Both the position numbers and the translations under genes were made by a program. Below, in pieces: positions 1 through 54,497 of a stretch of 64,000 bases of DNA. This DNA comes from Bilabrum cf. latius (Eukaryota): positions 744,001-808,000 of the forward strand of contig OZ237767.1 in the NCBI GenBank assembly GCA_965178125.1. The letters are read 5' to 3'. The notes under the pieces were generated by a model. The model searched no databases. It had not been told where the DNA came from and worked only from the letters and a program-made list of their open reading frames with translations. Numbering within the stretch: position 1 is the first letter of the stretch; every line of letters starts with the position of its first letter.

Positions 1-1233
1 TCGCTGGCAGGCGTATGTGCGTGGTCAGCAGGAGGCGGAGCTGCGGGCGGAGCTGGGCCGGCAGGAGGAGGCGCTGGAGGCTGTGCGTGCATCATCGAGT
101 CGCGATCGCGCTGATGCTGACGCGGCCATGAGCCGTTGTTTGGAGGAGCACGCGCAGGCTGTGTCGGCGCTTCGGTCCGAGCTGGATGGGGCGGCTGCCC
201 GGGAGCGCGCGCTGTAGCGGAAGCAGCGCCGGCTTGCGCTGGACGCGGTGCAGCGTCTGCGCAGTGGCGCTCGGGGTCGTGTGTTTGGTGCATGGCGTGG
301 CTGGTCGTAGGGCCGGGTGACAGCTCGGCGGGTGCTTCGTCGTCTGGTGAGCAGCCACACGCATGCTGGTTTGCTGGACGGATGGCGTCGCTGGCAGGCG
401 TATGTGCGTGGTCAGCAGGAGGCGGAGCTGCGGGCGGAGCTGGGCCGGCAGGAGGAGGCGCTGGAGGCTGTGCGTGCATCATCGAGTCGCGATCGCGCTG
501 ATGCTGACGCGGCCATGAGCCGTTGTTTGGAGGAGCACGCGCAGGCTGTGTCGGCGCTTCGGTCCGAGCTGGATGGGGCGGCTGCCCGGGAGCGCGCGCT
601 GTAGCGGAAGCAGCGCCGGCTTGCGCTGGACGCGGTGCAGCGTCTGCGCAGTGGCGCTCGGGGTCGTGTGTTTGGTGCGTGGCGTGGCTGGTCGTAGGGC
701 CGGGTGACAGCTCGGCGGGTGCTTCGTCGTCTGGTGAGCAGCCACACGCATGCTGGCTTGCTGGACGGATGGCGTCGCTGGCAGGCGTATGTGCGTGGTC
801 AGCAGGAGGCGGAGCTGCGGGCGGAGCTGGTCAGGCAGGAGGAGGCGCTGGAGGCTGTGCGTGCATCATCGAGTCGCGATCGCGCTGATGCTGACGCGGC
901 CATGAGCCGTCGTTTGGAGGAGCACGCGCAGGCTGTGTCGGCGCTTCGGTCCGAGCTGGATGGGGCGGCTGCCCGGGAGCGCGCGCTGTAGCGGAAGCAG
1001 CGCCGGCTTGCGCTGGACGCGGTGCAGCGTCTGCGCAGTGGCGCTCGGGGTCGTGTGTTTGGTGCGTGGCGTGGCTGGTCGTAGGGCCGGGTGACAGCTC
1101 GGCGGGTGCTTCGTCGTCTGGTGAGCAGCCACACGCATGCTGGTTTGCTGGACGGATGGCGTCGCTGGCAGGCGTATGTGCGTGGTCAGCAGGAGGCGGA
1201 GCTGCGGGCGGAGCTGGGCCGGCAGGAGGAGGC
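1..1233 (+). repeat. 387-bp near-identical coding tandem repeat, ~3.2 copies visible
   Basis: Identical blocks recur at 387-bp spacing (ORFs at 317/704/1091 and 25/412/799); the length is a multiple of 3 (129 codons). Confidence 0.95.
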
Positions 1234-3085
1234 ACTCGTGACTGCTGGTCGGGATGCGGCCGATCAACTAGCATCTGAGCGGAAGCGACTGGCAGCTGAA
1301 GGGGACGATCGCATGCGGGAGGCTGAGAGTCGCTATGGGCAGATGCTGCAAGAGCGCGACGAGGACATCCGCCGCTTGCGGGAGAAGGTTCATTTTCGGA
1401 GTACATCTGGCAGCAGTATTCATCCGGCCGCTAAAGGCTCTTCTGTTTCCCTGCATGACTACCTAGCTTCGCTATCCGTAACCGAAGCGGAAGTCGGTGC
1501 GATCTTGTCAATTCTTCTTGTGCGTTTGAGAGAAGTTCAAACTTCTGCTGAGGCAGCGTTGGGTTCAATGAGCGTAGACCACGGGCGAATCGACTCATCC
1601 GGGATGTAGCTGATCCGGTCGCTGCACTCAAGCATGTCTGCCAAGTGCCAGGACGTGCAAAACGCGATCGAGCTGACAAGAGAATCGTTTGGCCGACTCA
1701 AGACAAGTTTGACGGATGATCATCACTCTCGTCAAGGTACAACGGCGACGTCTTCCATTTTGGCCATGCAGAAACATCATGCTGCGCTGTCGGTGCTTAG
1801 AGGCTAGATTGCCGAAGAGCAGGCTGCGAATCAGCTCCTTCGTTCAAGGATCCTAGCTGTGTCTGCTCCAACGCCAGATGCTTTATTTGAAGCAACATAG
1901 ACTGGTAGCAGGCCCTAGAGGGACGCGGCAAAGGCCATTGGCGAGCTGATCGACGCCGAGGTGCAGCTCAGGGCAGCCGTCTCAGCTGCGCATGCCTACA
2001 AATCGTCACTTAGGCGCCACGAATAGCCAACATCAGCACCTGATGTGCCATCGAGACACGTATCGTTTGCGGATTTCGTAGGGTCCGGAGACTCAAGCGC
2101 GCTGTTGCAGGTCCTTAGTTCGGACTCGCACGCGTCAGCAAGCAGGCAGGCGCCGCTGGTGTCGTACTCTACCAGTGCCTCGGAAACTGTTGAAAACGCT
2201 GAACCTCACATGGAAGCTGTGCACCACGGGCCCCATCCCAAGCTGCAGGTGCTGTAGGCGGTTGTGGAGCGATTGGTGTCCAACAGCCAAGGTGTCCTCG
2301 GCTTACTTAGACAGGGTTGGCGAGCGGAGCTTGACGCCGCCTCATCCTAGACAAGCGCCCGCATCGACAGGTCTAGCCTCGAGCGAAGTCGACCCACAAT
2401 GAACGTTGCACTGGCCCAAAGTGCGTCCGGTCTCCTGTCTGGCCACCATCATGGCACGGGAGAAGACGGGGACACTTTCAACTGCAGCCAGTCCATGGCT
2501 CTAGTGCTGCCATCTCGCCCCAGCTCTCCACCGCCGCAGCCCCCAAGGGAACAACGGGCAGTCTTGGGTGGCCCGCACACCCTGCGAGGCGTGATTGACA
2601 GCTTGCTACAGGCGAGTGAGTGCCTTGGATAGGAGCCCAGGGAGGGGGCAGCACACGACAGCAGGATGGGCCCGGCCCTGCGCGATAGCGACACTGAATT
2701 ACCCGCCTGTGGTCCAGGCATTGCGCAGGCCGAGGACCTGCTGGCTTGGATGAGGGTGCTCACTAGCACCAGCACTGTTGTCAGCACTGGTGCTGGCGCT
2801 GGCATCGGCCTGCATCGTCGGGGGTATGAACTTGGTCTTAAGACATTATGGGAGGCGCTCCAGAGGCTCAAAGTTGATAATAATGGGGCACTTTAGTAGG
2901 AAGAGTCTCGGGGCAATCATGGCGCCCAAGTGGCAGTGTTGCACGAGCACCTTCTCGAGGCGTGCAGGTCTCTGGCGGTGCAACGGTTTCAAGCTGCGGC
3001 GGCTGGGCGGCACATCGATGCTGCCCTCGGCAGCTTGCAGAGCAAGCTCAGAAACTCGCATGCTCCATCATTGTTGTCAAGCTAA
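1..3085 (+). CDS. 5'-truncated large repeat/coiled-coil protein with Trp-rich Sfi1-like repeats (TAG read as Gln)
   Basis: ORF pieces 17, 317, 704, 1091, 2045, 2399 and 2666 share one frame and are separated only by TAG (including TAGTAG at 2894-2899). The first other stop is TAA at 3083-3085, followed by AT-rich UTR-like sequence. The 129-aa repeat contains RVFGAWRGW and LLDGWRRWQ motifs. Confidence 0.75.
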
Positions 3086-3613
3086 TATGATATTATTGAT
3101 GTTGAAGTTGTAGTTTGGTTAAATTTTGTTTTGTTTTTCTGACTGACAGCTGCAACGAGAAGGGTGGGGCGGTGAGAGCAGGTGGGGTGGGGTGGGGTGC
3201 TCCACTCAGCCTGGGGGCTCCCAGTGCCAGCATGCCGGCAAGCCATTTGCCCCCAGGTCGCGGGCACGTCGCAGCTCTTCGCCTTGAGCTGGGCTTCTGT
3301 CCCTCTGTGGGCCAGGGCCTGCCCAGTGGCCGATTCACTTCAAGTTGGGCGTTTACACTATTGTAGAAGTGATGCTGCTTGTCTGCGATTGAGAAACATG
3401 TTCTGCTATATACCCAGAGGGAACCGTACTCTACAAGTTCCGCAAAGTCCTGAGGGCTGGCCATGCTGGGCCAGCACTACGGCTCGGGCCTGCGGCGCGG
3501 CGCGGCGGCTGTCTCTCCCTGAAAAAGCACGGTACAACTTCAAGCCGTTCTCGAAAACCAGATTGTCTCTATCTGTTTCCCCAGTCACACATTCAAGAAC
3601 TACCAAATCTGAC

Positions 3614-4741
3614 ATGGCTTCGGCATCAAAGGAGATTGATGAGAAAATCGCAGCTGACATGGATGCTGCTGACCCAGAGCAGAAGGAAATGATGAAGGAG
3701 GAATGCATTGTTGTGACTGATGACGATGTACCGATTGGGCCTGGTTCGAAGAAGGAGTGTAAGGAATGCTCATGTTCGCGCCGACTTAATAACGCAGGCA
3801 AGGAAGTTATGCTTGCCGTTCGCCGTATGATTCCCCTGCAATCTGTCGTAGGTCACGTGATGGCGAACATCAAGGGCGGAATGCTGCACCGGGCGTTTTC
3901 GGTCTTTTTGTTCAATACCAAAGGCGAGGTACTGCTGCAGAAAGTAAGAATATCTTATGAGATGCTTTCAATCAGCACCGTGTCTGTTTCTTTGATGAAG
4001 CACGGTATTGATGCCTTTGCTGGTTTTCAAGAGACGCAGAGAGCATCGACAAAGATTACTTTCCCTGACTACTGGGCTAACACGTGCTGCTCCCATCCAT
4101 TGTGGCGTAAAGCTGAGCTAGAAGAAAAGGATGCCAGGGGTGTCAAGGTGGCCGCCATCCGGAAGCTGGAGCAGGAGCTCGGGATTCCCCCGGAGGACGT
4201 GCCGGTGGAGAGCTTCACGTTCCTGACAAAGGTGCATTACAGTGCCGCGAGCGGTCCTGGCTCGCCGTGGGGGGAGCATGAGATAGACCATGTACTTGTT
4301 TGCGTGCCTCCGAAGGATGTTCGGCTGCGCCTGAACCCGAACGAGGTCGGCGAGGCCCGGTACTTTGCACCCGGCGAGCTGCTGCCCTGGATCGAGGGTG
4401 CGCCCAAGCGCGGGGATCTCGTGTCTCCCTGGTTTCGCATCATCGCGGAGAGGCTCCTGTCCCCGTGGTGGAAGGTCGTGCTGGAGACACGCAAGGAGCA
4501 GCAGGACAAGGGCGAGGCCCAGCCCGGTGACGCAGCAGCCGCGCTGACTGCCCTGGCACAGCCCGATACAATCCACAGGGCAGGGGATTTCGACGCCGTG
4601 GGTGTCCGTGTGCTGGAGACTGTAAAGGCCTCTGGAGGCGCCTCGGGATCTGGCACCGATGGCATGGAGGCTGCCTCCCACGGCCGCGCAGAGGAGGAGA
4701 GCAAGTCCCCTGGGCCTGTGGAGGTCGAAGCCTCCAGCTGA
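3614..4741 (+). CDS. IDI1: Isopentenyl-diphosphate delta-isomerase type 1 (Nudix fold); introns 3759-3851 and 3944-4039
   Basis: Motifs LHRAFSVFLFN, KITFPDYWANTCCSHP, AAIRKLEQELGI, WGEHEIDH and SPWF. Removing two GT-AG introns restores KKECHVMANI and LLQKRASTKITFP. TGA stop. Confidence 0.93.
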   Translation: MASASKEIDEKIAADMDAADPEQKEMMKEECIVVTDDDVPIGPGSKKECKECSCSRRLNNAGKEVMLAVRRMIPLQSVVGHVMANIKGGMLHRAFSVFLFNTKGEVLLQKVRISYEMLSISTVSVSLMKHGIDAFAGFQETQRASTKITFPDYWANTCCSHPLWRKAELEEKDARGVKVAAIRKLEQELGIPPEDVPVESFTFLTKVHYSAASGPGSPWGEHEIDHVLVCVPPKDVRLRLNPNEVGEARYFAPGELLPWIEGAPKRGDLVSPWFRIIAERLLSPWWKVVLETRKEQQDKGEAQPGDAAAALTALAQPDTIHRAGDFDAVGVRVLETVKASGGASGSGTDGMEAASHGRAEEESKSPGPVEVEASS

Positions 4742-5348
4742 ACCCGGTGCATAGTATGTTCGACTTGAGCATCGTTTTGCCTGTGCCTGCCTCTGCTCGG
4801 GGTGATTGGCACGGGTGCCTTCGCCTAGGCGCAACCCAGCCTGATGACCAGCTGCCGTGCTCTTGCACGATTTGCTGGATCGGTCTGTGCGCCCGTGGCT
4901 TGTCTGTCTGTGCATGTGTACAAATTAGAATTTACACTATACTTTCCTGATTTTAGAGCCAACTATCACTGATTCACTACCGTTCCTTGTCAGCCCTTTC
5001 CTGCATATTTCCTACCTAATGAGCCTATGGTGAGCCAGACAAGGGCAGCTTCTCCTATTTTCTACTACCTTTCTTGAAATCCTCTTCGAATTTTCTTCGA
5101 ACTGATGCGTCCTTTAGGTGATTTGAGAAAATGTAATAGCCCAACAGGCTGCCGATCGCCGCAGCCCCTAGCACCTCAATCCGTGTAATGGTGGGTCCCC
5201 GGCCAGACATATGAGCTCTCCTGGTCGTAGTAGGCGGGTACTAGGCGCTCTCGGTTTAGCACGCACGTGGTAGAAGTGTGCCAGCATGTTCCATTGGGCT
5301 GCTGCTCCGGATACCCGTCGTTGTGCAAGGAGGGACTTTTAATTCTCC

Positions 5349-8300
5349 ATGCCGCAACTGAGCAGGCTACAAAAGCTCCGTTCGTTATTCTTCTCCACCC
5401 ACCCTGATGCTGCTGCATTCATTGTTGTGGCGGGGCCCGACGCTGCTCAAGATGAACCGAGTATGGTGATTCTAAAGTACTTGTTTGCCCCATCCACTGG
5501 CCCAGCAGTATTACAGCCCGAGGCTTCGTCTAGCATTGCAGCACTCGATGATGTTTTCCTTGTGGTTTTTCGTGATAGCGCTGTAGTGTACACAGGGGGC
5601 ACCAAATCTCAGGGCTGCGACACCGTAAAGGGAACGGCATCAAGTTGGCCTGGCACGGAGATTATGCAGTTGCCCGACAAAATGAATGCCCAAGATGCAA
5701 AAGCAGAGGAATTCAAGGCGCGGGCGTTCGTAGAAGCAACGTATGGGCTCGCTGGTGAACTGGTAGGCCTACTTTTCAAATCACCTGAAGGGGCCGACGA
5801 TTCAAACGACGAAGCAGCGCCCAAACGACTGTCAAATGCCCAGTCTTTGGTAGAAACGTGGCCTTTGGTCCAGGCAACTGCACTAGAATCCCACGGAATG
5901 CGTTCGCGGGGCTTCTTTTCGGCCACGCGGTCAATAGTCCCGTGCGGAGACCTGCTAAAAGCGGTCCTCGATGTCGATGGAACTACGATGCTGGACCTCG
6001 TGGGAGCAGCAGTCCCACGGTTAAATTCTCACTTTCATCGGTCTTTGAAGCTGCTTCAATCGCCGTTTTGGTCGTCTTGTGGCCACTCGCTGGGTCATGA
6101 TGCGAGCAGCGGCCGTTGGCAGGTATTGCCAGCTGCTGCCCAACTCTCGGAAGCCAAGGTGGCGGAGGATCTGCTGATGCTGCGCGAGTTTGCGGCGCTT
6201 CAGTAGGAGGGTGTCCTACATCTTCCTACTACGCAGACTCTTCTAGAAGTGCCACCTGACAGGGCTGGATGCTGGATGGGCATGCGCACGTCTCTGCTGC
6301 CCGCCACGCTGTGGGCTGCTGCTGTAGGAGGGAGAGGGAGAGATGGACCCGGCTTGGGCGATGCTGCTGCATCCAAAGGGGTCGATCGAGCCCCGCCCAT
6401 CGGTCAAGCTGGGCCTGCTGGTACGCTGGCCACGCACGCTGTGGTGCGCGGGCACGATCCCAGCAGCGGGCTGCAGCTGGCCCGCACGGTGATCCTGCAC
6501 GCTGGGGGCCTGGAGCAGAGCGAGTCTGGCAGCAACGCTGCTGTGTCGGCTGCCCTATCAGCCCTTCAAAAGGGCCATACGTTGGCGCAAAAGGCCATGG
6601 CCTCCTGTTTGGCGCGGGACGCTGGGCGTGCAAGCGGCGCTTCTGGCGCAGGAGACGAACTAGACGGGGGCAGGTGCTTGGTACGACTGGCTGCTGCTGC
6701 ACTTGCGGCTCTCACCAGAGCATGGGGCTTCCCTGCCATCGCTGAGTCCTTGGGCAAAGAGGCAATTCAAACGGCGAAATCCACTTTGCAGGTTGTGATT
6801 GATGTCACCAATGCAGCCGGGTAGCTCGAGGGCAGCGTGAGGGCGACGCCAGCCGGCTGCTCTGGTCCTTTTGATGCTAGGATGGCCGGAGAATCCACAG
6901 CATCGGTACATAGAACCCGTGTAGAGGGACGTGCAGGATCGGGTGAGCAAGATGTGGACGTTGACGTGGCTGGTGAGTGTGGGGCGGCCCCGTCATCGCG
7001 CATCTTGGTGGTGTCCTGCTGCTGCGGTGACGTGCGTGTGTTCGGGCGAGCTATTGGGGCCATGCTTCTCACTGACTCGATCGTTCTGGTTCCAGAGCAC
7101 ATTAGTGTATAGAAGAAGCCAATGCAAGGTGCGGGCTTGCTTGCGGCCTCCTCTGGGGCAGGGGCGGCTTCGGCGCTTCCTCCACGCAAGCCAAGTGCCA
7201 AGGCTGCCGCTGGCGCTCCTTGGTTCCTCTCCGATTCGGACGGTGCGGCCTGGGATTGCGCCGGACCACTCTCCTACGTGCCTTTGGTGCTCACAGACGA
7301 GGTACCTTTGTGGCAGAGCATGTAGTGGCCTTCGGCTGCGTCGGGTCAAGCAGCAGCAGCTCCTGCAGGTGCCGGTTCAGCGAGGGGGCGGGGAGCCACG
7401 GAGCTGCCAATCACAGTGCATTAGCTACTAACCGCTTCTAGCCGAGCTGTCCGGGCCGGTGCTTTGTGTGACATTGCTACTGGTGGATCCAGCATGCCTC
7501 TTGCAGTCCAGGCCCGGGTGCTGGCGACAGACAGCCGCCTACAAATCGCGCATCCTTTGCTCGGGGTCGTCACACTGGCAGCCGATGACGCGAGGTGGTA
7601 CGCGGAATACATCGCGGGTTCAGATATGGCCAAGATGGCTGGTACTAGGCTGCGCAAATACGAGGATAGAGTGGCGGTGTACTCTCAAATAGCATGCACC
7701 GGGCCCCAACCCGATGACGAGGCCGTGGTAAAGCTTGTTCAGTCCATCGAAGACGAGGAATCGGGCGGACCAGGTCAATTTGGTGCCATATGGAGACGCA
7801 AGACTTCGGCCGGGGCCAAGAGTCCTTTTGCACCTTCTGACGCTCTCATTCTGAAGCTGGATGCAGGACTGGCGCCCCGAAGGTCTACGACAGCATCAAC
7901 TACGAATGTGTTGGTGCTGCTGCTGTAGCAAGGGTCTCATGTCCAGGCCCTGCTGCGGCCATTGGTGAAAAAGTGGGAGGCTTCTGACCCAGCCAAGTCG
8001 TCAGCTGCAAGCGCGCGCCCGTCGCGCCAGTGCCTCGCAACCGTCGGTCGTAACCTGTGCGGCAGGTACGCCGTCGCCTGGAATGCGATGGTTGCCGCCG
8101 AGTGCATGGAGCGGCACTCGAGTATGCTGCACCCCAAACAAGCTCAGTGGGTGGATGAGTGTATACGTGCATCGACATCACACGCGCCTGAGGCCGTACG
8201 TGTAGACTTCTACATTGGCACAGCGGACTCGCGAGTGTGCCAAGTTGCTGCTGCTGCTGCTGCTGCACGGACTGCAGCCACCCCATTGCTCGTTGACCTG

Positions 8301-9809
8301 CACTCCAAGCCATTCAGGGCGGACGATGTCGCAGCAGAGATATATAAATCAATTCTTGCCCATGCTTCAGCTGAGTGCAATCATGTTGTTGTGGTGCTGC
8401 CTGCAGGAGTGGGAGCGTACGGCGCCACCGCTGTGATGGTCGAGCTTTTCAGTGCAGGTCACTGCTCCCCGAGGTTAGGGAACGCTGTACTGTGCATTGA
8501 GTGCAGTCAGCATGTATCATCGTCGCCTGGAAGTGGATTTTCGAGCCAGCTGCTGGCTCGCTGCGCAGTTCCCGGCGTGCTGACGCATGTCGCCGTGTTG
8601 TGCTCCAAAGGCCTGCGTCCCGGTCGGGAACTGTCGCAGCAAGTGCAGCGGCTGCTGCATGTAGTGGAAAATGCATCAAAAGTGTTAGTTGAGATCGACT
8701 CATCTGTGTATGAGCTTTCTATTGGATCTGCTGCTGTGGATGCGCTCTGCTCAGCGGCTCCTGCGGACCGTTCGCGAGTCGTGAGGGCCAAACTCGCCGT
8801 GGGAAGACCGCTGTCGGTGCAGCCATTTGATGGTGCTCAAGCTCATTGGCCGCAAGAGGTTACCGTCGAGATGCATGCGCCGTGTGTGCTGGACGGAGCT
8901 CGCCTGTCGCCACTCCTCGAGTCTTTGCAGCGCCCTACCACCCGGTGGTCTGCAGCTGACCTGAGCGCAAGCCACGCTGGCACGGTCGGTACTACCTTGC
9001 TGGAATCGATCGGCGGGGTGCGAGGCCGCTTCTATTCAACCACTGAAGAACCCATTGGTGGTTAGGGGAGTGTGTTGGGTGGCAAGTACGGCGGTCTACG
9101 CTTGAGTGACGCCATGGTGGTACGTGGGGGTGCTCTGATGCTTGAGGAGGCAGCAGTTGAGACTGGGGATGGAGAGGCTATTGGCAGCGGTGGAATGATT
9201 CGGGTTCGAGTATTAGATCCAGTCCTTTTTGGATCGAAGCATGCACCTGGAGCCACTTACACAGTTGAGGGTGTAAAGGAAGCCTTGGGACGCGCCCTTG
9301 GAGCGTGTCGGCCCCAGATACCCGCTCTGCTGCCCCGCCGAGACTACGCCGGGCTCACTGCAGAGGAGCGCCGGGAGTTTCAGCACTGCTGCAAGCAATT
9401 GCCCGTGCCTGCAGAGTGGATGTATGATGGGTCCAGGTGGGTGTCCTTCGATGGGCGTGTCTCGTACTTGCATCCCGCCCACGAGGACGCCTGGCGCGAA
9501 TGCGAGGCAGCCTTGAACCGCAGGGTTGACGAGTTCAACGAGACAATTAAGGGGCTGCGGGCCAGAGCCAGCCGCGAGGCAGACGCATTGGCAGGCACAG
9601 CTCGTGATCCATGGTGGAAAGACATCCCTGACGAGCCCACGGTGTCGGGCCCTGCTGGGATCGCGACCGTGATGGGTGAGTCAGTAGTGCAAGCTGCCGT
9701 TCGAGATCGGATTGGGGTCCAGGAGGGGAGCGCGACTGATCCGGATGCTGGCCCCCCAGAGGCTGCAAGTGGCGCAGGGGCAAGCGAATCGAAAGCCGGG
9801 GGCGACTAA
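5349..9809 (+). CDS. DNAAF9: DNAAF9/C20orf194 (Shulin)-like dynein assembly factor, ~1486 aa (TAG=Gln)
   Basis: A single frame broken only by TAG (6204, 6822, 7110, 7323, ~7422, 7926, 9063), ending in TAA 9807-9809. N-terminal LDDVFLVV..AEEFKARAFV..VETWPLVQATALE..GFF and C-terminal LPVPAEWMYDGSRWVSFDG..HP match my recollection of C20orf194 motifs. Confidence 0.8.
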
Positions 9810-23239: not shown

Positions 23240-23348
23240 GATAGCTTGAACTTGTGCATCCCGCATGGGGATCCGTTGGCCTAAAAGTGCTCGCAACAAT
23301 TGCAGGATGCGGAGTCCGCTGCTTCCTAGTCAAAAACGATTGGTCTCG

Positions 23349-33220: not shown

Positions 33221-33284
33221 GGCACTGGCACTGGCACTGGCACTGGCACTGGCACTGGCGCTGGCACTGGCGCTGGCACTGGCA
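33221..33284 (+). repeat. (GGCACT)n hexamer microsatellite, intergenic/3' UTR
   Basis: About 10 tandem GGCACT/GGCGCT units. Confidence 0.9.
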
Positions 33285-33387
33285 TGCCTGGCAGTGGGAC
33301 CTCCGGAACTCAGACCTGTTTCCCACGAGCAAGAAATTGCTTACCTGCATCGGTCTTACGGTCACAGCAGCTCCTAGCTCTCTGCGC

Positions 33388-35187: not shown

Positions 35188-35342
35188 GCGCCTAGAATTA
35201 TTTGAATTCAATGCCTTCTGAGGGGCAGATCTGCTGAGGGGGCCTTTTGTCTGCTAGGGAACCCCATTTTTTTCCCGGCGAACGTCTTGTTAAGGTTCGC
35301 TGTGACAGCGAGCAAGTTTTGCACGAAAAGAACCTTTGGTAC

Positions 35343-37982: not shown

Positions 37983-38123
37983 GGGATAGCTTGCGATCTA
38001 CATAGCAGGGCTGACAAGACTTTCAATTAACACACACATGGCAGCGGCGACTAATGACTCGGATTTCTGTCGAGAAAAAAAGCACAGCTCACCAGCCACA
38101 TCCGGGATGTAGGTGCCTGGGGT

Positions 38124-40439: not shown

Positions 40440-40572
40440 CGCACGTTGGCCAGGCACAATAAGTCTGAATTGCATGCCGCAGTGTACTACATTAGTAAAC
40501 TGCACCTCACAACAAAAGGATCTCGCAGCGCAGCCGCCGTTCTCACGCGCAGAATTGAGCTACATTTTAGTC

Positions 40573-43735: not shown

Positions 43736-46700
43736 TCACAGGCCACCGACCACCGCGCCGCTCTCTCCCTCAAAGAACCCGAGCAGAGACTGCCCCACCT
43801 TTGGAGACCCAGCCTCCGACTGACTGGCAATCGACTCCAAGTCCTGTCCCTCTGGCGAAGGGGGCAGCATACCGGCTCTCAGGCTCGACTCATGGGCCTC
43901 GTCCATCGCGCCCTGTTCCTGCTTGTCCGCCTGCCGCCCGCAATCTAGCCGGCTCTTCGCATTACGGACCCGCTGCTTCCAGTCGCTCTTCTTGCTGCTC
44001 CCAACAGCCCCGCTCCTCGCGTTGCCTCTCTTGGATGAGCCCAATACTGGGGCTCTTGCTGTGCGACCCCCCCTGAAGCTGCCAGCAGTGCTGGCGGCGC
44101 TCCCCTTCGGCTGCTGGCTGGGCCTCCTGAGGTGTATCGGGGTCGCGGGTGGGACTGCACCTGCGGTCGTGCGGGTTGTCTTCTTCTTGGTGGCAGAAGC
44201 AGCACCTCGGCGCTGGGCCGGCCGAGCAAGCCGCATGGGCGTCTTGGGTGGCAGTCGGGAGCTCGCTCTAGCCGGGGGCGCTGCGCTTCGAGCGGCACCA
44301 AGTGCTGGTTCGCGCGCGTGCTCTCCACCAGCCTGCGCGTCGCTTCCACATGAGAGTGGCCTCCACTCGCTGGGGCCCGCCCGGTCCTTTTTCGCAGACG
44401 GAGCCCGGACCGACCTGCGGCTGCCGCGGCTACCCTGGCTCTCGAGCGAGTCGCGGGAGGCCTGGGCAGCGGATCGAGTGGCCTCGGCGGCTATCTATCG
44501 CTGTCTGGCCACCTCCTTGCGCAGCTTTTCTATCTCCTTGTCTCGGTCCTGGCACCGAGCCTTCTCCCGGGCCAGCTGGGTCCTCGCCCGCAGCAGGTCC
44601 TGCTTGGCGCGTGTGGCGCCAGCACCCGAATCTGCCCCGCTCGGCCCTGCTCCCTGCTGCCTCTTGGCGGCGGCTCGCCCAAGTTGGACCTTGGCCGCCC
44701 GCACCGCGAACTCCAACGTGCACGTGCTCTCCTGCGCATCGGCGCTTACCGGTGAGACGTGAGCGAACAGGATCGCCCTGCCGCCACTGCCCGGGGTCAG
44801 GCAAGGCGACAGCAGGCTCGTCAGCGCGGAGTCTCGGAACGGCACATGGGGAGACTTGCGCTGCAGGGCTGCGAGCACGCTCCCCAGCGTGCTCAGGCTC
44901 TAGTTGATGTGCTGTGCCTCCTTGCGAGCACTACCCACGGCACCTGACCTGGCCAGCCGTTCGGACCCTGCTAGATCCACCAGAGTCAGAACGCCTTCCC
45001 TGAACTCAGCCGGGGGTGCGTCGCTTCCGTCGTCACGATCTGACTCGCCCGCTAGGCCTGCAGTCAGCCGTGCTCTCACTCTCACCACGAGGTGCGATCG
45101 GGAGGACCGCTCGTTCATGTCAGTCTTGGACGAGGCGCGCTGCTCCAGACCGTGCAGTACCGCCCGCATCACCTCGCGGGGCTCGTGCACGGCCTGCTCG
45201 GCGAGACCCTCCAGTAGGACACCCCCATGACTCGGGTGCTCCGAGGCTGCAGCTCGACTGGGGTCCACCATACGGGCTAGCACCTTGCGGGGTCCTGCAG
45301 TCGAGTCGTCAGCCGCGGATAGCCTGGGCAGCAGGTCCCTGATCTGCTCGTTGTAGATCTCCATCATGCTCAGGTGCAGCTCAACGGTGCCCTCCCCGCA
45401 TGCCCTTACCTCCTCTGCGGCTTCGAACAGCTGCAGCACGGCCCGCGGGATGAGGCCAGCCTGGGCCAACTCTGGGCCGGCACCATCCCCGGCTTGCTCG
45501 TTCCCAGCGGCTCCCGGCTCGGCAGCAAGATGAGTAGAGTACTCCTCCGGGCCTAGCATGGTGTACGTCTTGCCAGATCCAGTTTGCCCGTAGCTCAGCA
45601 CGGCGCAGTCCACACCCTGCACCACGGATGCAACGCTGTCCCTCACCTCGGAGAAACACTCCTGCTGGGTAGATGCGGGGCCGTGCACGCTGTCCACATC
45701 AAAGGAGCGGACAGACTTGCGGCTGCCTTCTCGTGTGCCTCCAGACTCAGTGTCCACCAGAAGCCTGCCCTCGCCCGTGGCAGTGGCCCCGGGAGCCACC
45801 CGAAGCGCCTCCACGTCCTCCCTGGCCTGTGCCCCCGAGCGGCGTGGGGGCGGCCTCACCCTCACCACGACCCGGATGGCGCCCTTCAGTTCTGCCACCT
45901 GGTTGCGGAGAGCACGCGCCTCCTTCACTGCGAGCCTTACCCTGGCCTGCAGCTCCTGGGCCTGCTGGCTGGCCTTCTCTTGCGCCTGCTGCCTCTCGAG
46001 GCGAGCATCCTGCAGCGCCCGCCCCAGTGCCTCTGCCTCCTGCTGCGCTTTTGCCGCGCGGCAAGCGGCCGCCTCGAGAGCTTGAGAGCCTTCTTTCGCA
46101 CTAGAGGTTGCCGATGCATCCTGCTCTGCCCGTGCACTCTCCATCTCCCGCCGGGCCAGGTCCAGCTCAGCCCTCGCCGCCTCCAAGTCAGCGCGCACAG
46201 CGGACAGCTCGTGCTCGTGAGACTCTTGAGCGGCAAGGGACGAAGCCGCGGAATTATCTCTCCTCAATTTGCGCGCATGCGCTGCTTCTTCTTGCGCTCG
46301 TTGTGCCTGCTGCTCTGCACTTGCTGCTCGCTTGAGCGCTGCAACACGGGCAGCATCCGTTCCAACTCGTGCCTACTCTGCTTGTCTCGCGCGATACCGG
46401 GCGTCCCTCAGGCCTTCCTGGGCCCTCTTTGCATCTTGTTTGCACTCCTCTAGCTGCTGCTCGGCAGAACTCGCTCTCGATTCGGCTAGCTGGACTGCAA
46501 CCGAGAGTCGTTGCAGCTCAGCTTTCATCGCTGAAACCTTCGACTTCGTCGTGTCCAGGGTCACCTTGTGAGCGTCAGAAGATCTTTTTTTCTCCATTGT
46601 TGTTGTGATTGCATCGCAGTGAGTTCGGGCGAGGTCGGACTTTAGCTATTCGTTGGTCCGCTCCAAGATCTCTCGCGAGCGCTCAGACTCTTCCAGAGCA

Positions 46701-46957
46701 TCTCGCAGCTTCATTAGCTCTGACGCTTGCAACGACATTTCGTTTTCAAACTTTCGAGATAGTTCTCTCTCCCGTTGCTTCATCTCCAGCTTGTGGTCCT
46801 CATCCCGTCGCTGTATCTCTTGCAGCAGCACTTGCGTCTCCTCGGACTCGGACACGCCATCTATTGCACTGCTCGCCCCGCTTCTCTACAAAATTGATGC
46901 TTTATTACGTTCAATTAAAGGTTGACTGCCTTCAGCCTTGGTGAAAAACCCAAACAT
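43736..46957 (-). CDS. Kinesin-14 (KIFC3-like): N-terminal coiled coil, motor domain, basic tail (TAG=Gln)
   Basis: Neck LRNQVAELKGAIRVVVRVRP, P-loop YGQTGSGKTYTM, NERSSRSH, LVDLAGSER and HVPFRDSALT. TAGs at 46646, 46373, 44900 and 44495 are in frame; TGA 43736-43738. The start ATG at 46957 is inferred. Confidence 0.88.
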
Positions 46958-47137
46958 GCTCCAATTGCTCAACCTTTCGGAATGGCGCGAACCGCAACTC
47001 TCACCAAACCGGAACAACTCGGGAAAACAGAACGTTCGTCACGCGGGGCTTCAAAGTTCGTTTCTCTGATCCGGGATCCTCCCGACAGTCCTGCAGAAAC
47101 ACGTTCACAGGGACTTGTCATCAAGCAAAAGTTTAGC

Positions 47138-48757
47138 ATGCTAGTTTTGAGCTTGGTGGCGCTGGTATCGAGTTCGAGTGCTTAGAATGATGGATTCTAT
47201 TCTGGAAGATCGGAGTGGACGCGTCATTTGCTCGGTATGCCTAAACGCACAACCGTGATGACCGCCCAACAGATCATGTATGATCGCCATCTGCACGTGC
47301 GCTCTCAATCAAGCAACCAGTCTGCATGGATCTCGGTGCTAGATTACGGTGCAGACCCAACAGGCGAGTCTGACAGCTCCACAGCTGTGCTTGCCGCGTT
47401 GTCGGCGGCTGCAAACTTGTCATCACGAGCCGATCCAAACGTAGGGTCGGCTGATGTCCAAGTGAGCCTTGAAGGGGGTTTGTACCGCATCGACTCGCCG
47501 CTCCAGATTCCAGGCAACTCCAAGGGTGTCTCGCTCGTCGATGGCGCACTAGTCGCTGGGCCGGGGTTCCCATCATCGAGGCACATGATCGAGGTGATGC
47601 CGCAGCCGGGGACTGGCACTCCGACAGAATTAGCGTTTACGAATCTCGTGCTGGATGCATCCCACCGAGGGGGGTGCTTCCGCTCGGACAGCATCGTGCA
47701 GATGACCGTGCAAGAGGTCTTCTTCTTGCACTACTCATCGGAGGGAATCTTGGGGTCCTCGGAGCATGGATCCGGGCACGAGCTCATGGTGAGCAAGTGC
47801 TTCTTTGCCGAGTACATGTGGGGCGAGCCTGGATTCAACGTGAAGGCCATGAAGACAGGCACCGCCGTGCACATGACCTACCCGGACTCGCACGTGATCG
47901 ACTCGATCATCCGCTGCTCGAAGGTGGGCGTGTACAACGAGGGCGGCTCTAACCTGTTCCAGGGCCTCCACATCTACACCACGTGCGATCACGGATCAGA
48001 CGCTGCCAACATGACGGACGGGTACATTGCGGCCGGCACACAGCAGAGATTCATTGATGGTTACATCGACAGCTGCGTAGCTCGAGTGAAGACGTTCGGG
48101 GGCACTTCAATCCAGAACACGCTATTTTTTGGGCAAGGCCGGCTCGTGCTGGATCCAAAACGTTGGAGCAAGTCCAGCAACTTCGCTCACGTGCAGGGTC
48201 TAATCGTGGAGGGCAACCACTTCACGTGCGCGGGGGCACCATGGGGCCAGGCGTGCGGCAACATGACCATCGAGTCTACCGAGGGTGTGCGGCTGCTGCC
48301 CAACGCGGTTTTTTCCTCCTCCGTCGTGGACAACAACTGGGCGAATGCCCCCGACGCAGCCAGCACCAGGCCGCAGGGACGTGTGTTCTTGAATGCCACC
48401 CTGGCTGAGCTATCGCAGGGGCCGGGCGGTGGCGGTGGCGTGGTGGTGAATGTGACGCTTGATCAGCGGTTTGCTCTACCCGTGACCCTGGCCAAGGTCG
48501 GCCCCGGTGCCACCATTGGCATTGACAGCGAGGCTTCCCCGCTGCGGCGGGTGCAAGCAACCGCCACATCGTCGACGCCCGTAGGTAGCGGCTCGTGTGG
48601 GTCTGCAAGGGTGGCGCCATTGGTAGCAACCCCGCTGTCGCTCGGTGCCGAAGGAACTAGCATGCAGGTGATGGTACACTCGACGTGCCAGGTCCAAGGT
48701 GCGGACTCTTCGCAGATCTCCGTGGGTGTGTATGTCCAGGCGGATCAGTCCACGTGA
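47138..48757 (+). CDS. Secreted pectin-lyase-fold beta-helix protein, QRT3 polygalacturonase-like (TAG=Gln)
   Basis: Signal peptide MLVLSLVALVSSSSA, then TAG 47183-47185 in frame with the 509-aa ORF. Motifs VLDYGADPTG, LEGGLYRIDSPL, LDASHRGG, GHEL, GTAV and NLFQGLHIY; TGA stop. Confidence 0.75.
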
Positions 48758-48879: not shown

Positions 48880-50398
48880 TTAGTCCAACTCGCCAACAAC
48901 AACCGCAGCCGCTCCCTCCTCGCTGCCAGGCGCCTCACCATCCCCCCCTGCATCCGCCACCGCACCCTCGCTTCCGTCTGCATCTCCAGCTTCAGCCGCA
49001 GCCTTCGCCCCAGACTCGGCAGCTTCGTCCTGCCCTGCGTCCCCCTTTATCCCCGCAGCTGTATCCTCCCCCTCATCCCCCGGCTAGGCTTTCCCTGTGT
49101 CGCGGAGGCTGCTCTCCACTGGCACTGCAGAAGCTGCAGGGGAAGGGGCGGCAGCGCCACCTGCGTCCAGCGGCGGCACATCTTGCTCCTTCGATGCGGT
49201 CGCCTGCTCACTCGCGATGGTAGCATCCTTCGAAACTGCTCCCATGGCCTTCTTGAGCTGCTTGACCGCCCTCCCTTGCAACTGCCGGCACAAACTCTCT
49301 AGCTTCGAGTTGCGGGACTGCAGCCGAGCGCACAGCCGAAGCGCCTCCGCTGCCTCCTCGCCCCTTCGCGCTGCCAGCTTCTCCAGCTCCCGGGTGCGCT
49401 TGTTCAGCATTGAAGAACGCTTACTGGCCTCTTGCAGCGTGCGCGTAGTCTCCGTAATCAAGGCCTGCTGCTCTGAAAGCTGCGCTCTCAGCGCATCTAC
49501 CTCCTTCTGCTTCGAATCCAAGGCATCCTTCTGCTGGTCCATCAGAGCGGCCATTTTCTCAAGGTGGGCCATGGCTTTCGTCGACTTCTCTTCTGCTATC
49601 TATTTTTCCAGCTTTGCGATGCGCAGTTCCGCCACGTGACTTTGCTGAACCATGTCAATCTAGCGCTCGAGTGCAGCGGCGCGGTCGACAGCGCTGCGTA
49701 GTGGGGGCAGAGACAAGTCTAGATCATCTGCCTTAATGACACAAACACATCATGAATACGGTATATAAGCTAGAACTTGCATGAAATTGAAACGGATTAA
49801 CCACAAAGAATACTTACGCCGCCCTGGCCTTGTCGAGGGCCCCGTGGTCGTCAACTTTTTTCATCACATCCTGCGATAACGTACCGGTGGCCCGGATCGG
49901 ATGGACAAGTATTATAGTCGTGCTAACAAGGTGGCAAAGTAGCACTACTAGCAGACTACCCGAGCGCCTCAGCTCAATCAAGTCTGCATGGCTTTAGCCC
50001 AAGCATCTAACCTCAATGCGTCGTTCAAACTCCGCCCTATCCTGCTTTTGCCGCTCAGAAACTTCCAAATTTAGCTTTTCTACCCTTTCTGCGTGAGCCT
50101 TTTGGTGTGCCTCTTGCTCTTTTGCTTTCTGTTTCAAAACAGATGTCAAACGCTGCAACACCTCATTCTACCGCTAAAGCTTCTCAGTCTTTTGTTTTTC
50201 GCTGCCTAATGCACGTTGCGATACTTGTAGATCCCCTTTATGCTGTTCCACCTCAGATTTGAATCGTTTTGTAGCCTCCGTGGCTTGCTGCAGTTGTGCC
50301 CGCAACTACAAACGACTTGATACGTTCTTTTCCTGCTCCGATTTCAAGAGACTCCGAAGCTCTTTGACCTGTTGCTCTAGTCTACCGGTATCAGACAT
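48880..50398 (-). CDS. Taxilin-like coiled-coil protein, two introns (TAG=Gln)
   Basis: Coiled coil ending SKLESLCRQLQ. GT-AG introns at about 50003-49871 and 49817-49694 have compatible phases; several in-frame TAGs; TAA 48880-48882. Confidence 0.7.
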
Positions 50399-50573: not shown

Positions 50574-51908
50574 TTACAAGGCTGATCCAGAACTGGGGGC
50601 AGCACCAGCACCAGCACCAGCACCAGCACCAGCACCAGCACCAGCACCAGCACCAGCACCAGCACCAGCACCAGCACCAGCACCAGCACCAGCACCAGCA
50701 CCAGCACCAGCACCAGCACCAGCACCAGCACCAGCACCAGCACCAGCACCAGCACCAGCACCAGCACTCTCGGTCTCAAGTTCTTCGATGCTCCGCTTGG
50801 CCTCAAGCAGACGGGCCAGCCGGGCCTTCTTGGTCGCGACTTTCGCCCGAGCATCAGCCACTAGAGTGCTTCTTCGCGCAGCTTCTATTCGAACGCGTTC
50901 CGCCCGAACCTTGAGGTCTTCCGCAGCAGCCCATGCGTGACCCTCCACGCCGGCGCTCCAACCGATCAGCGCATCTGCTAGCCGGTGGTGACCCGCCCTT
51001 CGTGCCACCTCGGCTACGGATGCCCCCGTCCCGGGGTCAGCCGGTGCATGCACCCAGGCGGCAGAGGGGGCATCCGCCGAGAGCGCGCGCAGAGTCCCAA
51101 TCCGACCAGCAGCCGCGGCGAGCGTCACTGCAAGCCCGCCTCCCGCCCCGGAATCAGGTGCGGAGACCCTTGCCGCCCGGGAGGCCCCTGCCGCCACGAG
51201 CACGCGCACCGCCTCAGTGTGGCCCTTCCTCGCCGCAATGTGCAGCGCGGTCTCTCCCGCTCCTGTGCGCGCCTCCAGGTCCAGCCCAAGCGAGCCCCGA
51301 GGAGGTGGAGCCGGGCCCGCACTTGAGACTAGCAGTGCGCGAAGGACCGCCGCGTGACCCCCGGCCGCTGCCAAGTGTAGTGGCGTCCAGCCGTTTCTGG
51401 GATCGCGTGCCAGCAATGCGCCGGCCTTTGGCGAAGCGTGGCCTGTTCCGCCTCCCGCAGTTTTGGCCAAGGCACCAGGTCGCACGTCCATCACGGGTTG
51501 GTTCAGATCAAAAAGCAGCAGTCGCCCGCCTGTCGCGCGATTCTAGGCGTGTCCCAGTCGCACCAGCTCTTCTACTACATCAACTTCTCCTCTACGGCAG
51601 GCATCGTGCAGGGCTGAGCGACCGTTGCCATCAAGAGCAGTGACGTCGGCTCCAAGCCTCTGCAACATCCGCAGGATTTCAAAGGAGCGCACGCCTCCTC
51701 TAGCTGCAACATGCACACATGTTTTGCCAAAATGGTGCATCCAGTCCCTAGCATTCAGGTCTCCCCCACGGGCCACAGCCGAGGCCAGCAATGTAGTGTC
51801 ACGCCGCTCCACAGCCTCGAATGCCTCCTACTCGGGCAAAGACAAAGGTCTCTCCCCGCGGGCTATGTCACAGAGCACAATTTCGGCCGTTTCAGAGTCT
51901 GCGATCAT
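50574..51908 (-). CDS. Ankyrin-repeat protein with C-terminal Gly-Ala tract (TAG=Gln)
   Basis: GKTCVHVAA, GRSALHDAC, GWTPLHLAA and GETALHIAA. TAGs near 51828 and at 51543 are in frame; TAA 50574-50576. Confidence 0.85.
50601..50766 (-). repeat. (GGTGCT)n, ~27 copies, coding poly(Gly-Ala)
   Basis: Perfect CACCAG array on the + strand. Confidence 0.95.
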
Positions 51909-52193
51909 GTTGCTAGCCAGGAAACCAATGCTACCACGACCCCAACGGATCCAATCGCTTCTCAGCGTGCAATCGCTACAATTCTCAGTATTCACTCCAC
52001 GACATGCTCCTCAATCCAGATAAACACCTGCTGCTAGTAGATTATGTCTGAGACATTTCATTTATGTGTTTCTCTCAATGTGAATATCGCTTTGAATGTA
52101 AACGCTGCCGATCTGCGAATTATGAAGATGAAAACTATGCTGCAACGCCACAGGACTCTCAGAAGGCCTTCACCCGTCGTGCCAATACACGCA

Positions 52194-52964
52194 ATGTCTG
52201 GGAAAGCAGATTCGAATATAACGGTTCGAATGGGGGAAGGCCGTAGGCGTATTGTCCGGTAGGTTCAAGCTTCCAGGGGGGCAGCGACCTTGTCGGAGCG
52301 ATTCGCGCAGATAAGACGCAGGGCAGCAGCCCTGTAGCGAGAAAGATCAAAGCAGCCGGCGGTTGTTGTTTAGGTGCCCCGAGTGTCTGTGCAGCAAAGC
52401 CAGCGCCCTCAGCTGCAGGTTGACCGCCCGAAATCCAATGGTCGTTTAGAGATTCGCAAGTCACCGGGAGGTCGCCAGCGTTTCTTGGATGTTCAGCCCA
52501 AGAGTTCCAAGTATCAAGCCATGGACGCGTCATACAAGCGTGGCGATGCTGGCAAGCGATCGTCTGGCAGTCCCCGGGTTCGTGGCGGTGGCCGGGATCG
52601 GGCAGACCAGCCTCAACGTGGCCCCAAGCAGCAAGCGAAGAAGCAGACCGCCCGAGCTCCGTAGCGCAAGGCTGCATCACAGGCTGCTGCCGCTCCAGGT
52701 GGCAAGAAGAATGGGGTGGCAAAGGCAGGTGCTGGCGCCGGCGCAAAGCCGAAGGGCAAGGAATCGAAGAAGCAGGAGAAGGGTGCTGACTTGGGGCTGT
52801 CCAAGAGCGTAGACCCCGCGAGTCTTGACTACGAAATGGACCGCTACAGGCACCAGGCAGGGCGAGGTCCCGACCCAGATCAGGCCCGGTTGGATCGGGA
52901 GCTGGAGGGGTACAGGGCAGGTCGCAAAGGCAAAGGGACTGCGGGAGCCGAGGGGTCGACCTGA
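52194..52964 (+). CDS. CHTOP/Friend-of-PRMT1-like RNA-binding protein (TAG=Gln)
   Basis: N-terminal TLSERF, RGG segments, and duplicated C-terminal SLDYEMDRY / RLDRELEGY motifs. Four in-frame TAGs; TGA 52962-52964. Confidence 0.65.
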
Positions 52965-53165
52965 AGACAGAGCGGGCCCCTGGCCGTCCATCGGATGACA
53001 CTCACAGTTTTAATCATGACGATTTGCAACCGTTTCTATAACCCACTAGGCTCTGTAGCAGAAACCCAACGATTTCCCAGGCCAGCAATTATTCCAGGTC
53101 CATGTGACGATCGTCACACGGGATCGACTGGGGAACTTCGCGAGCACAACAAACAGGCATCAGCA

Positions 53166-54497
53166 ATGTTTGCGAGCACGAATCAGCTAGAATCGGCTAT
53201 ACTAGAATACTTTGATGGCCGCTCCTGCAGGGCTGCAGTGAAGTCTCTGGAATCCGCAGGTTGGGCACGAAATGTGAGACAAACGAGCAGTTGCAGTTTT
53301 GAGATATGACCATTGGGCATGCAGGTGCGTTTTCCGAATACTAAGTTAGCATCGCTGGCTTGTGTTATTTTCTGTATGTTGCAGGTGCACCAGGGCTCCC
53401 TACGGGAGCGTGCCAAACAATTGCTGGGGTCATCAAGGCTATCCCAGCGACCAGGTAGCGAGCAGCTCGACACAGGAAGCCGGTCATCCTCAGATTCCAG
53501 CTCAGATTCTAACTCAAGCTCTGACAGTGACAGTGGTACCGACAGTGATAGTGACAGGGATGACGCTAGCGAAAATCAGAGTGTGCCCATAGCTGCTGCC
53601 GTTGCTGCCGCTTCGGGAGAGGTCAAGGTACAGGTAGTCCCTCAAGATGGAGCCGACGCAGACGACGAGTCTTCATCTTCCAGTGACAGTGACAGTGATA
53701 GTGATAGTGATAGTGATAGTGATAGTGATAGTGATAGTGACAGTGATAGTGATAGTGATAGTGATGGGGGCGCCAAGGCTGGTGCCGCCGATGAGACTTC
53801 ACAGAAGCAAGCCAGCGGCAGTGCTGGCAGCAGCAGCAGTGACAGTAGCAGCAGCAGCAGTGACAGTAGCAGCAGCAGTGACAGCAGCAGCAGCAGTGAC
53901 AGCAGCAGCAGCAGTGACAGCGATTCCTCGTCAGAATCTAGCGACGATGAGAAGGAGAAGGACGAGGAGAAGGACGAGGAGGAGGCGCGGGCAGGGCTGG
54001 GACAGAAACGGCCGCGACCGACCTACGGGTCAGATGAAGCAGGAGGGGCCGAGCTTAAGTTCATGCAGAAACCTGATGAGGAGCTCGAAGACGGTCACGT
54101 GGCCAAGCGAGGGAGGACTGAAGCAGCACCCACCACGCCGGGCGCTCCCCCAGTGGAGTCCGAGTTCTACAATGCTGGAATTGCAGGGTACGGCATCGGT
54201 TCGGCTGCTCCTCGCCCCAATGGCAGAGTGAGTGATGGGAAGCGCAAGGCTTTTTGCCGCATCAACGTGGAGGAGGAAGCCGCCAAGCTGCAGGGCGCCG
54301 ACCATCGGATCAGGGACAACAGCTATGCTGGCACATTTGGCGACAAGGGCTGGGGTGCTCGAGCTAGTCAGGCAATGATGCGGGTGCGTGGCAAGGATTT
54401 CAGGCATGAAAAGACGAAGCGCAAGCGGGGTGGATATCGCGGGGGTCGTATCGACCCGATGGCAGTGACGTCATACATCTTCGAGGACAGTGACTGA
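53166..54497 (+). CDS. NOLC1: Nopp140/SRP40-like nucleolar phosphoprotein; intron 53274-53384
   Basis: LisH-like exon 1, Ser/Asp tracts, and SRP40 C-terminal domain DNSY..WGARA..VRGKDFRHEKTKRKRGGYRGGRID; TGA stop. Confidence 0.85.
53682..53920 (+). repeat. (AGTGAT)n and (AGC)n-type coding repeats giving Ser-Asp and poly-Ser tracts
   Basis: Directly visible simple repeats inside the NOLC1-like CDS. Confidence 0.9.

Follow-up and report, generated by a model that had tools for sequence, protein, structure and literature searches.

A 64,000-nucleotide stretch of DNA from Bilabrum cf. latius (assembly GCA_965178125.1, contig OZ237767.1, positions 744,001 to 808,000; hereafter the window, in which positions are counted from the first letter) appears to be written in a code that assigns UAG, and UAG alone among the stop codons, to glutamine. 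We read the window as nuclear DNA from a stramenopile, a heterotrophic flagellate whose lineage is the sister group of the Cafeteria clade (bicosoecids) and has fully reassigned UAG to glutamine, leaving UAA and UGA as the sole terminators, a code of the type of NCBI translation table 15. We give this reading a probability of about 0.85. The UAG-only glutamine code is common to two species of the lineage and absent in the sister clade. A preliminary description, made from the letters of the sequence alone, had claimed a reassignment of UAG alone, with UAA and UGA still acting as terminators; this claim is upheld by alignments with homologs, by the orthologous locus of a relative and by unedited contigs of RNA type.

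Reading frames and in-frame stop codons

Under the standard stops, the longest open frame found by an open-frame scan of the window has 754 codons. When TAG is read as sense, frames of 4,300, 1,585, 1,488, 1,100 and 1,027 codons appear, with 4–26 TAG codons in each. These frames are long, intron-poor eukaryotic genes, and the families encoded include dynein, cullin, kinesin, endonuclease/exonuclease/phosphatase (EEP), histidine phosphatase, aspartyl/asparaginyl beta-hydroxylase (AspH), DAAF9, DUF6739, ankyrin, SRP40, NUDIX/isopentenyl-diphosphate isomerase (IDI) and a protein resembling FoP (Friend of PRMT1). The largest of the frames, an axonemal dynein heavy chain, runs for 12.9 kb without TAA or TGA throughout and needs no intron; the standard code cuts its 4,300 codons into pieces of 754 codons or fewer.

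Stop codons were counted in 18 stop-to-stop frames, which were delimited by TAA and TGA and extend in places into 5′ leaders and introns. Their 16,252 codons contain 113 in-frame TAG, no TGA and no TAA, the last being a zero that is partly built into the delimitation and is independent evidence only where homology is continuous. Homology is unbroken through the frames: all 26 TAG codons of the dynein fall in the region aligned with homologs, at residue 756 or beyond. The same DNA has 45 TAA in frame +1 and 76 in frame +2. The counts thus agree with the preliminary description, which had seen no TAA inside the exons that it translated. In the cullin gene, the three TAG codons counted at first lie in an intron or upstream, and the spliced gene carries two others. 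Glutamine is also encoded by 192 CAA and 502 CAG codons in these frames, and TAG makes up approximately 14% of the glutamine codons.

The composition of the genome leaves room for a coupled code, in which both UAA and UAG stand for glutamine, UGA is the only stop (table 6) and TAA is scarce because of high G+C content. The G+C content is 58% for the genome and 51–62% in the window, and codons ending in A are a minority, as the ratio of CAA to CAG illustrates. Moreover, only 8–63 further codons separate the seven TAA ends of the window from the next TGA, and the extended protein lengths would not be absurd. The counts nevertheless speak against such coupling. If TAA were used like TAG, scaled by the 192:502 ratio of CAA to CAG, one would expect approximately 7.2 in-frame TAA for the dynein and approximately 43 for all frames, whereas none is observed; for the dynein, the probability of finding none is 8e-4. 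In-frame UAA at glutamine sites, as in table 6, has no example in the frames counted; TAA never occurs in frame there and closes seven genes.

The amino acid at UAG

The dynein was translated with X at each TAG and aligned pairwise with 120 homologs obtained from a protein search. Across the 26 TAG sites, glutamine accounts for 1,206 of approximately 3,040 aligned homolog residues (39.7%), which is a 9.5-fold enrichment over its overall share of 4.2% in the dynein homologs. Glutamate reaches 15.5% (2.1-fold) and lysine is enriched 1.4-fold; none of the other amino acids exceeds 1.5-fold, and leucine, with 75 of approximately 3,040 residues, is not enriched. At 12 of these sites glutamine is the most frequent residue, and it attains at least 92% at seven, among which are two sites with glutamine in every homolog (115 of 115 and 120 of 120), found in the motifs ...LVCxRNWMY... 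and ...VLxNGVKLT.... The enrichment at these sites bears out the glutamine meaning that the preliminary description had implied for UAG. A pyrrolysine reading was considered and dropped, as the organism is eukaryotic and the sites are glutamine sites.

Not every site follows the pattern. Homologs mostly have glutamate at two of the dynein TAG sites (110 of 116 and 101 of 120), and lysine or arginine leads at a few variable ones, which is what a reassignment of UAG to an amino acid other than glutamine (glutamate, lysine or leucine) could draw upon. Such a reassignment is extremely improbable in view of the far stronger enrichment of glutamine than of glutamate or lysine, the lack of any enrichment of leucine and the seven sites with at least 92% glutamine; between species, as described below, TAG exchanges chiefly with CAG and CAA.

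Contigs of RNA type

Four sequencing runs contain a 10-kb probe from the window in full at an even depth of 16–18 and are probably the DNA source. Three further runs (X5, X7 and X8, from two other studies) contain 54–92% of the probe; their label, 'RNA?', is a guess, and we infer RNA from splicing and uneven depth. Over positions 28000–47900, the contigs of X5, X7 and X8 display six joints with GT..AG or CT..AC borders, none of which is present in the DNA run X1. The joints correspond to six introns of 90–170 nt in three genes: the cullin gene, a small gene on the plus strand and a membrane-protein gene on the minus strand. Those of the cullin gene, at 40983–41072 and 41305–41431, are taken from a spliced contig.

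In six genes, the RNA-type contigs cover 23 of 27 in-frame TAG codons, and both TAG codons of the cullin gene are covered as well. They include five of the six in the histidine phosphatase gene, all four in the EEP gene and all five in the kinesin gene (contig 43569–46962), with unchanged letters in the latter two genes. No differing letters, insertions or deletions are listed in these contigs. The 25 in-frame TAG codons that stand unchanged exclude RNA editing and splicing at those positions. The 3′ untranslated regions (UTRs) implied by the contigs measure 36–170 nt, and no poly(A) tails are visible among the contig rows listed.

Short introns do exist in this genome, as the six examples testify, and one might therefore suppose that the code is unchanged and that the TAG codons are removed by introns or RNA editing, or reflect pseudogenes or a faulty assembly. 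We find this barely credible. The RNA-type contigs are colinear over the 25 in-frame TAG codons, with no joints or differing letters there, and four independent DNA runs contain the stretch in full. In addition, TAG stands at invariant glutamine sites in a dynein that is 90% conserved, and a relative from an independent metagenome assembly shows the same pattern.

As a separate observation, spliced transcripts of the window organism are found in runs that carry three other coded organism names and belong to different studies from those of the likely DNA source. This points to a life in mixed cultures or in samples that bear the label of a different organism.

A relative sharing the code, and the Cafeteria clade

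Metagenome contigs were scanned with the dynein, and the scan gave L002 (14.3 kb), L003 (2.7 kb) and L001. The dynein proteins of L002 and L003 are 90–91% identical to that of the window, and the L001 protein is 67% identical. TAG is needed as a sense codon in both of the closer contigs, with 17 TAG in 1,926 codons of L002 and 12 in 890 codons of L003. L002 is syntenic with the window, carrying the dynein, DAAF9, IDI and coiled-coil genes in turn. Twenty-three TAG codons of the window align in the relative with eight CAG, six CAA, one TAG and eight other codons; conversely, 47 TAG codons of the relative align in the window with 18 CAG, three CAA, one TAG and 25 others. The other codon pairs are mostly located in the fast-evolving DAAF9 gene, which is 36% identical between the two species.

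The orthologous genes also permit comparison of the stops. The dynein ends with TGA in both the window and L002, after an identical ...LLCQLND tail, and IDI likewise ends with TGA in both, with matching tails (...ETSS and ...EASS). The coiled-coil gene ends with TAA in both (ortholog at 12744..14264 of L002, minus strand). In DAAF9 the window has TAA and the ortholog (5953..10722 of L002, minus strand) has TGA, at the aligned ...GASESK.. end. An exchange of TAA and TGA at one C-terminus is expected if TAA is a real terminator.

The lineage was placed with a dynein tree of 25 rows, comprising 23 homologs picked by hand from the 120 together with the window and L002, built with a quick IQ-TREE search; the placement accordingly depends on one protein, a quick search and hand-picked rows. 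The window and L002 form a clade with a Shimodaira–Hasegawa-like approximate likelihood ratio test (SH-aLRT) support of 100, and this clade is sister, again with support of 100, to a group of protein P0002, Cafeteria roenbergensis and the L001 protein. The oomycete, ochrophyte and labyrinthulid rows fall outside the 13-row clade that holds the window. An Rfam scan of the window returned no match, hence no ribosomal RNA is available for placement. The Cafeteria-like dynein of L001 contains 189 CAG and no TAG in approximately 4,118 coding codons, on a contig of 71% G+C; two TAG precede the predicted start. The lack of sense TAG in a dynein of the sister clade indicates that the code change is later than the split from the Cafeteria clade.

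We also tried L001 as a syntenic standard-code control and rejected it, because its dynein neighbors a ubiquitin hydrolase gene and not DAAF9, which leaves no stop to compare. That ubiquitin C-terminal hydrolase gene (L001, 17405–19309, minus strand) has a TAG four codons before its TAA, which could be a true stop under the standard code. A protein search with short dynein fragments, looking for gene calls made under the standard code in the window organism or its close relatives, gave a best match of only 61% identity and was of no use.

Termination at UAA and UGA

The seven TAA ends listed in the preliminary description (3083, 9807, 29861, 37980, 40437, 48880 and 50574) all close long frames with TAG as sense. 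Its tally of 13 TGA ends is matched by 12 clear genes, namely IDI (4741), dynein (9982), cullin (43522), kinesin (43736) and the genes ending at 28007, 28156, 29738, 31965, 33388, 48757, 52964 and 54497, together with one uncertain frame (31851). In every one of the seven genes whose C-terminus can be checked (dynein, cullin, SRP40, IDI, DAAF9, DUF6739 and AspH), the protein ends at TAA or TGA. TGA stands exactly at the conserved C-termini of the dynein, cullin, SRP40 and IDI proteins. Pfam domains are completed just ahead of the stop in three cases: Cullin_Nedd8 (63 of 63), SRP40_C (76 of 76) and Asp_Arg_Hydrox (157 of 157).

Three of the TAA ends, those of DAAF9, DUF6739 and AspH, match the C-termini of homologs or orthologs. 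For DUF6739, the protein search gave two matches only; one homolog (P0242) is aligned up to residue 753 of 771 and has 23 residues left, versus 18 in the window protein, while the other (P0243) aligns only with the N-terminal and middle part. For AspH, in an exhaustive search, the alignment ends at query residue 260–263 of 267. Among the 20 top library matches, 10 end within three residues of the alignment end and 16 within 10 residues; the remaining four are multi-domain proteins or are split into two stretches. The preliminary description had pointed to two expected motifs shortly before TAA, and both are in place: the beta-hydroxylase ends with ...DFWNP followed by 24 residues, and the EEP protein ends with ...SDHRGLVVDLRTLVGQR, its SDH motif lying 15 residues from the end. 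Both coiled-coil genes and the ankyrin gene offer no informative homolog end for a comparison of their TAA.

The EEP gene adds an indication from its RNA-type contigs of two studies, which span 35334–38018 (X5) and 35618–37986 (X7) and end 36 and 4 nt after TAA, ahead of the next in-frame stop at 38028. Contig ends are no proof of transcript ends, and we regard these as a weak hint. Taken with the absence of in-frame TAA and with the TAA ends at conserved C-termini, one of which is TGA in the ortholog, the coupled reassignment of UAA and UAG is close to refuted and we hold it to be very improbable.

A further possibility concerns TAG itself. In an ambiguous code, UAG would mostly be read as glutamine and would act as a context-dependent terminator in some genes, in the manner of Condylostoma, karyorelicts or Blastocrithidia. 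Very short 3′ UTRs are typical of organisms with ambiguous codes. In the large gene at 23250..28007, a TAG that stands two codons ahead of the TGA might in principle be the true stop, and in the SRP40 gene the TGA is directly followed by TAG. Within 50 codons of the gene end, TAG is also slightly less frequent (4 of 44 glutamine codons) than elsewhere (105 of 741), a difference that is not significant, and a minority use of TAG as a stop would be invisible with approximately 20 genes. By contrast, all seven checkable C-termini lie at TAA or TGA, and the implied 3′ UTRs of 36–170 nt are not very short. There is no sense use of TAA or TGA either, while in codes of the Condylostoma and Blastocrithidia type all three stops are also sense. 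An ambiguous code therefore appears unlikely.

Mechanism and weight of the reading

By analogy with the proposal of Panek et al. (2017, PMC5304391), UAG would be read by a dedicated tRNA-Gln with anticodon CUA, which is one mutation away from tRNA-Gln(CUG). As set out in the same work, the anticodon CUA cannot pair with UAA, so that UAG and UAA can be uncoupled. The release factor eRF1 may correspondingly have lost recognition of UAG and retained UAA and UGA (after PMC5304391). The preliminary description had likewise supposed such a tRNA and such an eRF1. With 26 UAG codons in one dynein, leaky near-cognate readthrough would give no full-length protein, which makes a dedicated tRNA the likely route of decoding.

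Several points weigh against the reading of UAG as glutamine with UAA and UGA as sole terminators. Besides the partly built-in zero for TAA, the two glutamate-rich dynein sites, the TAG close to the end of the gene at 23250..28007, the guessed RNA label, the doubtful value of contig ends and the placement by one protein, neither component of the mechanism was encountered: tRNA scans found no tRNA gene in the window or in L001–L003, and no eRF1 gene is present within them. The DNA covered consists of the 64-kb window and 17 kb of the relative, and rare sense TAA or occasional TAG terminators may exist elsewhere in the genome.

Gene content and repeats of the window

The window begins with a coiled-coil repeat protein gene (2..3085, plus strand), open at its 5′ end, with 16 in-frame TAG codons and TAA at 3083–3085. 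A coding tandem repeat at 1–1233, with 3.2 copies of a 387-bp unit, gives rise to the 129-residue repeats of this protein. It is followed on the same strand by the IDI-like gene of the NUDIX family (3176..4741; TGA at 4739–4741; Pfam NUDIX, 2.7e-12), where introns are probable, and by the DAAF9-like gene (5343..9809; seven in-frame TAG; TAA at 9807–9809; Pfam DAAF9_N, 2.9e-14). The axonemal dynein heavy chain gene occupies 9982..22884 on the minus strand as one frame of 4,300 codons with 26 in-frame TAG and TGA at 9982–9984. Gene packing is tight, and the stops of DAAF9 and the dynein are 172 bp apart. A large gene with no Pfam family (23250..28007, plus strand) contains 21 in-frame TAG and ends with TGA at 28005–28007.

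Several smaller genes follow. A small gene with no Pfam family (28156..28932, minus strand) has three TAG and TGA at 28156–28158, and an RNA-type contig lies over 28131–28851. Another small gene (28994..29738, plus strand) has strong RNA-type cover, GT..AG introns at 29082–29189 and 29438–29576 and TGA at 29736–29738; its contig reaches 29868, past the beta-hydroxylase stop. The AspH-like gene (29861..30664, minus strand) carries two TAG and TAA at 29861–29863 (Pfam Asp_Arg_Hydrox, 1.3e-38). The membrane-protein gene (31965..33340, minus strand) has introns at 32287–32385 and 32453–32622, with CT..AC borders on the plus strand, and TGA at 31965–31967. Its RNA-type contig extends to 30800, over the uncertain plus-strand frame at 30838..31851. 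The extension corresponds either to a 3′ UTR of approximately 1.1 kb for the membrane-protein gene or to two overlapping transcripts that were merged.

The histidine acid phosphatase gene (33388..35289, minus strand; Pfam His_Phos_2, 9.1e-28) has six TAG and TGA at 33388–33390. The EEP gene (35238..37982, plus strand; Pfam, 1.4e-16) has four TAG and TAA at 37980–37982, and the DUF6739 gene (38058..40439, plus strand; Pfam, 5.4e-73) seven TAG and TAA at 40437–40439. The cullin gene (40569..43522, plus strand; Pfam Cullin, 7e-88) consists of exons ending at 40982 and spanning 41073–41304 and 41432–43522, with its two TAG in exon 2 and TGA at 43520–43522. On the opposite strand, a kinesin gene of the C-terminal motor type (43736..47038; Pfam Kinesin, 1.1e-75) contains five TAG and ends with TGA at 43736–43738. 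These two genes converge, and their RNA-type contigs overlap at the 3′ side, where the cullin contig runs to 43594 and the kinesin contig starts from 43569.

A gene for a secreted beta-helix-like protein (46919..48757, plus strand) has one TAG and TGA at 48755–48757; its weak Pfam match (0.0046) is under the curated cut-off. A coiled-coil protein gene (48880..49749, minus strand) has three TAG and TAA at 48880–48882. The ankyrin-repeat gene with an (Ala-Gly)n tail (50574..52010, minus strand; Pfam Ank_2, 7.2e-27) has two TAG and TAA at 50574–50576. The FoP-like gene, named for a match to the Friend of PRMT1 C-terminal duplication (E = 1.3e-4, under the curated cut-off), lies at 51618..52964 on the plus strand with six TAG and TGA at 52962–52964. 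The last gene is SRP40/Nopp140-like (53310..54497, plus strand) and contains no TAG before its TGA at 54495–54497; SRP40_C positions 2–76 of 76 match residues 315–391 of 395. Coding tandem repeats recur among these genes. The (Ala-Gly)n runs of the ankyrin and phosphatase proteins are specified by hexamer microsatellites, as are the Ser/Asp runs of the SRP40-like protein; the ankyrin hexamer repeat is located at 50600–50767. Further repeats are found at 33208–33284, 34020–34083 and 53682–53921.

No genes are found past 54497. A 53-bp repeat in 10.6 copies (54750–55313) precedes a telomere-type TTAGGG array of approximately 160 GGGTTA copies (55327–56284), and satellites with units of 155, 167, 410 and roughly 85–234 bp follow from 56345 to the window end at 64000. 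Three origins are conceivable for this region: the end of a chromosome bordered by subtelomeric satellites, an array in an interstitial position, or a join introduced in the assembly. The GGGTTA array also yields a spurious frame with 159 'TAG'.

Comparison with known nuclear codes

We found no nuclear code change in stramenopiles or bicosoecids in the full-text literature, a provisional result with most subscription journals and supplements outside the coverage. One candidate paper, PMC12560768, does no more than cite the work on ciliate codes. The preliminary description had raised the prospect of an undescribed independent origin, and this prospect gains support from the placement as sister to Cafeteria, from the TAG-free dynein of L001 and from the lack of a stramenopile or bicosoecid case in that literature. 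The window probably shows a known code variant in a new lineage; it is probably the first from a stramenopile and another independent origin. The fuller claim is that the first nuclear code change in stramenopiles took place in the sister lineage of Cafeteria, which numbers two or more species; after its split from standard-code relatives this lineage would have made UAG a glutamine codon and kept both UAA and UGA as frequent terminators. We favor this claim slightly over its negation.

If true, the two species and their close standard-code sister genus would provide a tractable pair for the study of how eRF1 discriminates UAG from UAA. Comparison with the eRF1 and tRNA-Gln genes of Cafeteria could make it testable which eRF1 residues tell G from A at the third position, and an independent stramenopile origin would strengthen the evidence that UAG-only reassignment is recurrent. 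There is a practical side as well: if this genome or the metagenome contigs related to it were annotated under the standard code, approximately 14% of glutamine positions would appear as false stops and most genes would be broken up.

Nuclear codes that separate UAA from UAG are confined to a handful of lineages in the accounts of PMC11687900 and PMC5304391, where the pair is described as nearly always changing together. The code with UAG as glutamine and UAA and UGA as stops (table 15) is given there for Iotanema spirale, Protocruzia tuzeti, Hartmannula sinica and Trochilia petrani; reassignment of UAG alone to leucine is given for a rhizarian and some ciliates, and to serine for Scotinosphaera (PMC11687900, PMC5304391). 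The precedents named in the preliminary description (Iotanema spirale, a rhizarian and phyllopharyngeans) were correctly chosen, but the list was incomplete, as it lacked Protocruzia tuzeti (UAG as glutamine) and Scotinosphaera (UAG as serine) (PMC11687900).

The closest named relative, Cafeteria roenbergensis, has a dynein heavy chain that is 67% identical to that of the window, and both organisms have intron-poor, G+C-rich genomes. Unlike in the window, the Cafeteria dynein is predicted at full length by standard annotation, which fits the standard code. More distant systems share parts of the pattern. The rhizarian exLh (UAG as leucine) and Scotinosphaera (UAG as serine) have uncoupled UAG as here, but with a different amino acid, whereas the table 6 code of ciliates, diplomonads and ulvophytes reads UAG as glutamine as here and has UAA as a sense codon too.

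Ciliates are a group long known for code changes. The same table 15 code as in the window is described for the phyllopharyngeans Hartmannula sinica and Trochilia petrani and for Protocruzia tuzeti (McGowan et al. 2024, PMC11687900). The evidence reported for these ciliates is of a like kind, consisting of C-terminal alignments and a spread of UAG along genes similar to that of other glutamine codons (PMC11687900). They differ in the choice of terminator: UAA is their main stop, at 93.5–100% of aligned C-termini (PMC11687900), while in the G+C-rich window TGA is the commoner. The metamonad Iotanema spirale (Fornicata) has likewise reassigned UAG alone to glutamine with UAA still a terminator (Panek et al. 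2017, PMC5304391), and the mechanism proposed for it is the same, with a tRNA-Gln(CUA) derived from tRNA-Gln(CUG) and an altered eRF1, which in Iotanema carries a T32G change in the GTS motif (PMC5304391). Its supergroup is unrelated to that of the stramenopile described here, and it was known from a transcriptome only (PMC5304391). UAA is the dominant stop in Iotanema (PMC5304391), whereas the window makes use of both UAA and UGA, in a proportion of 7 to 12–13.

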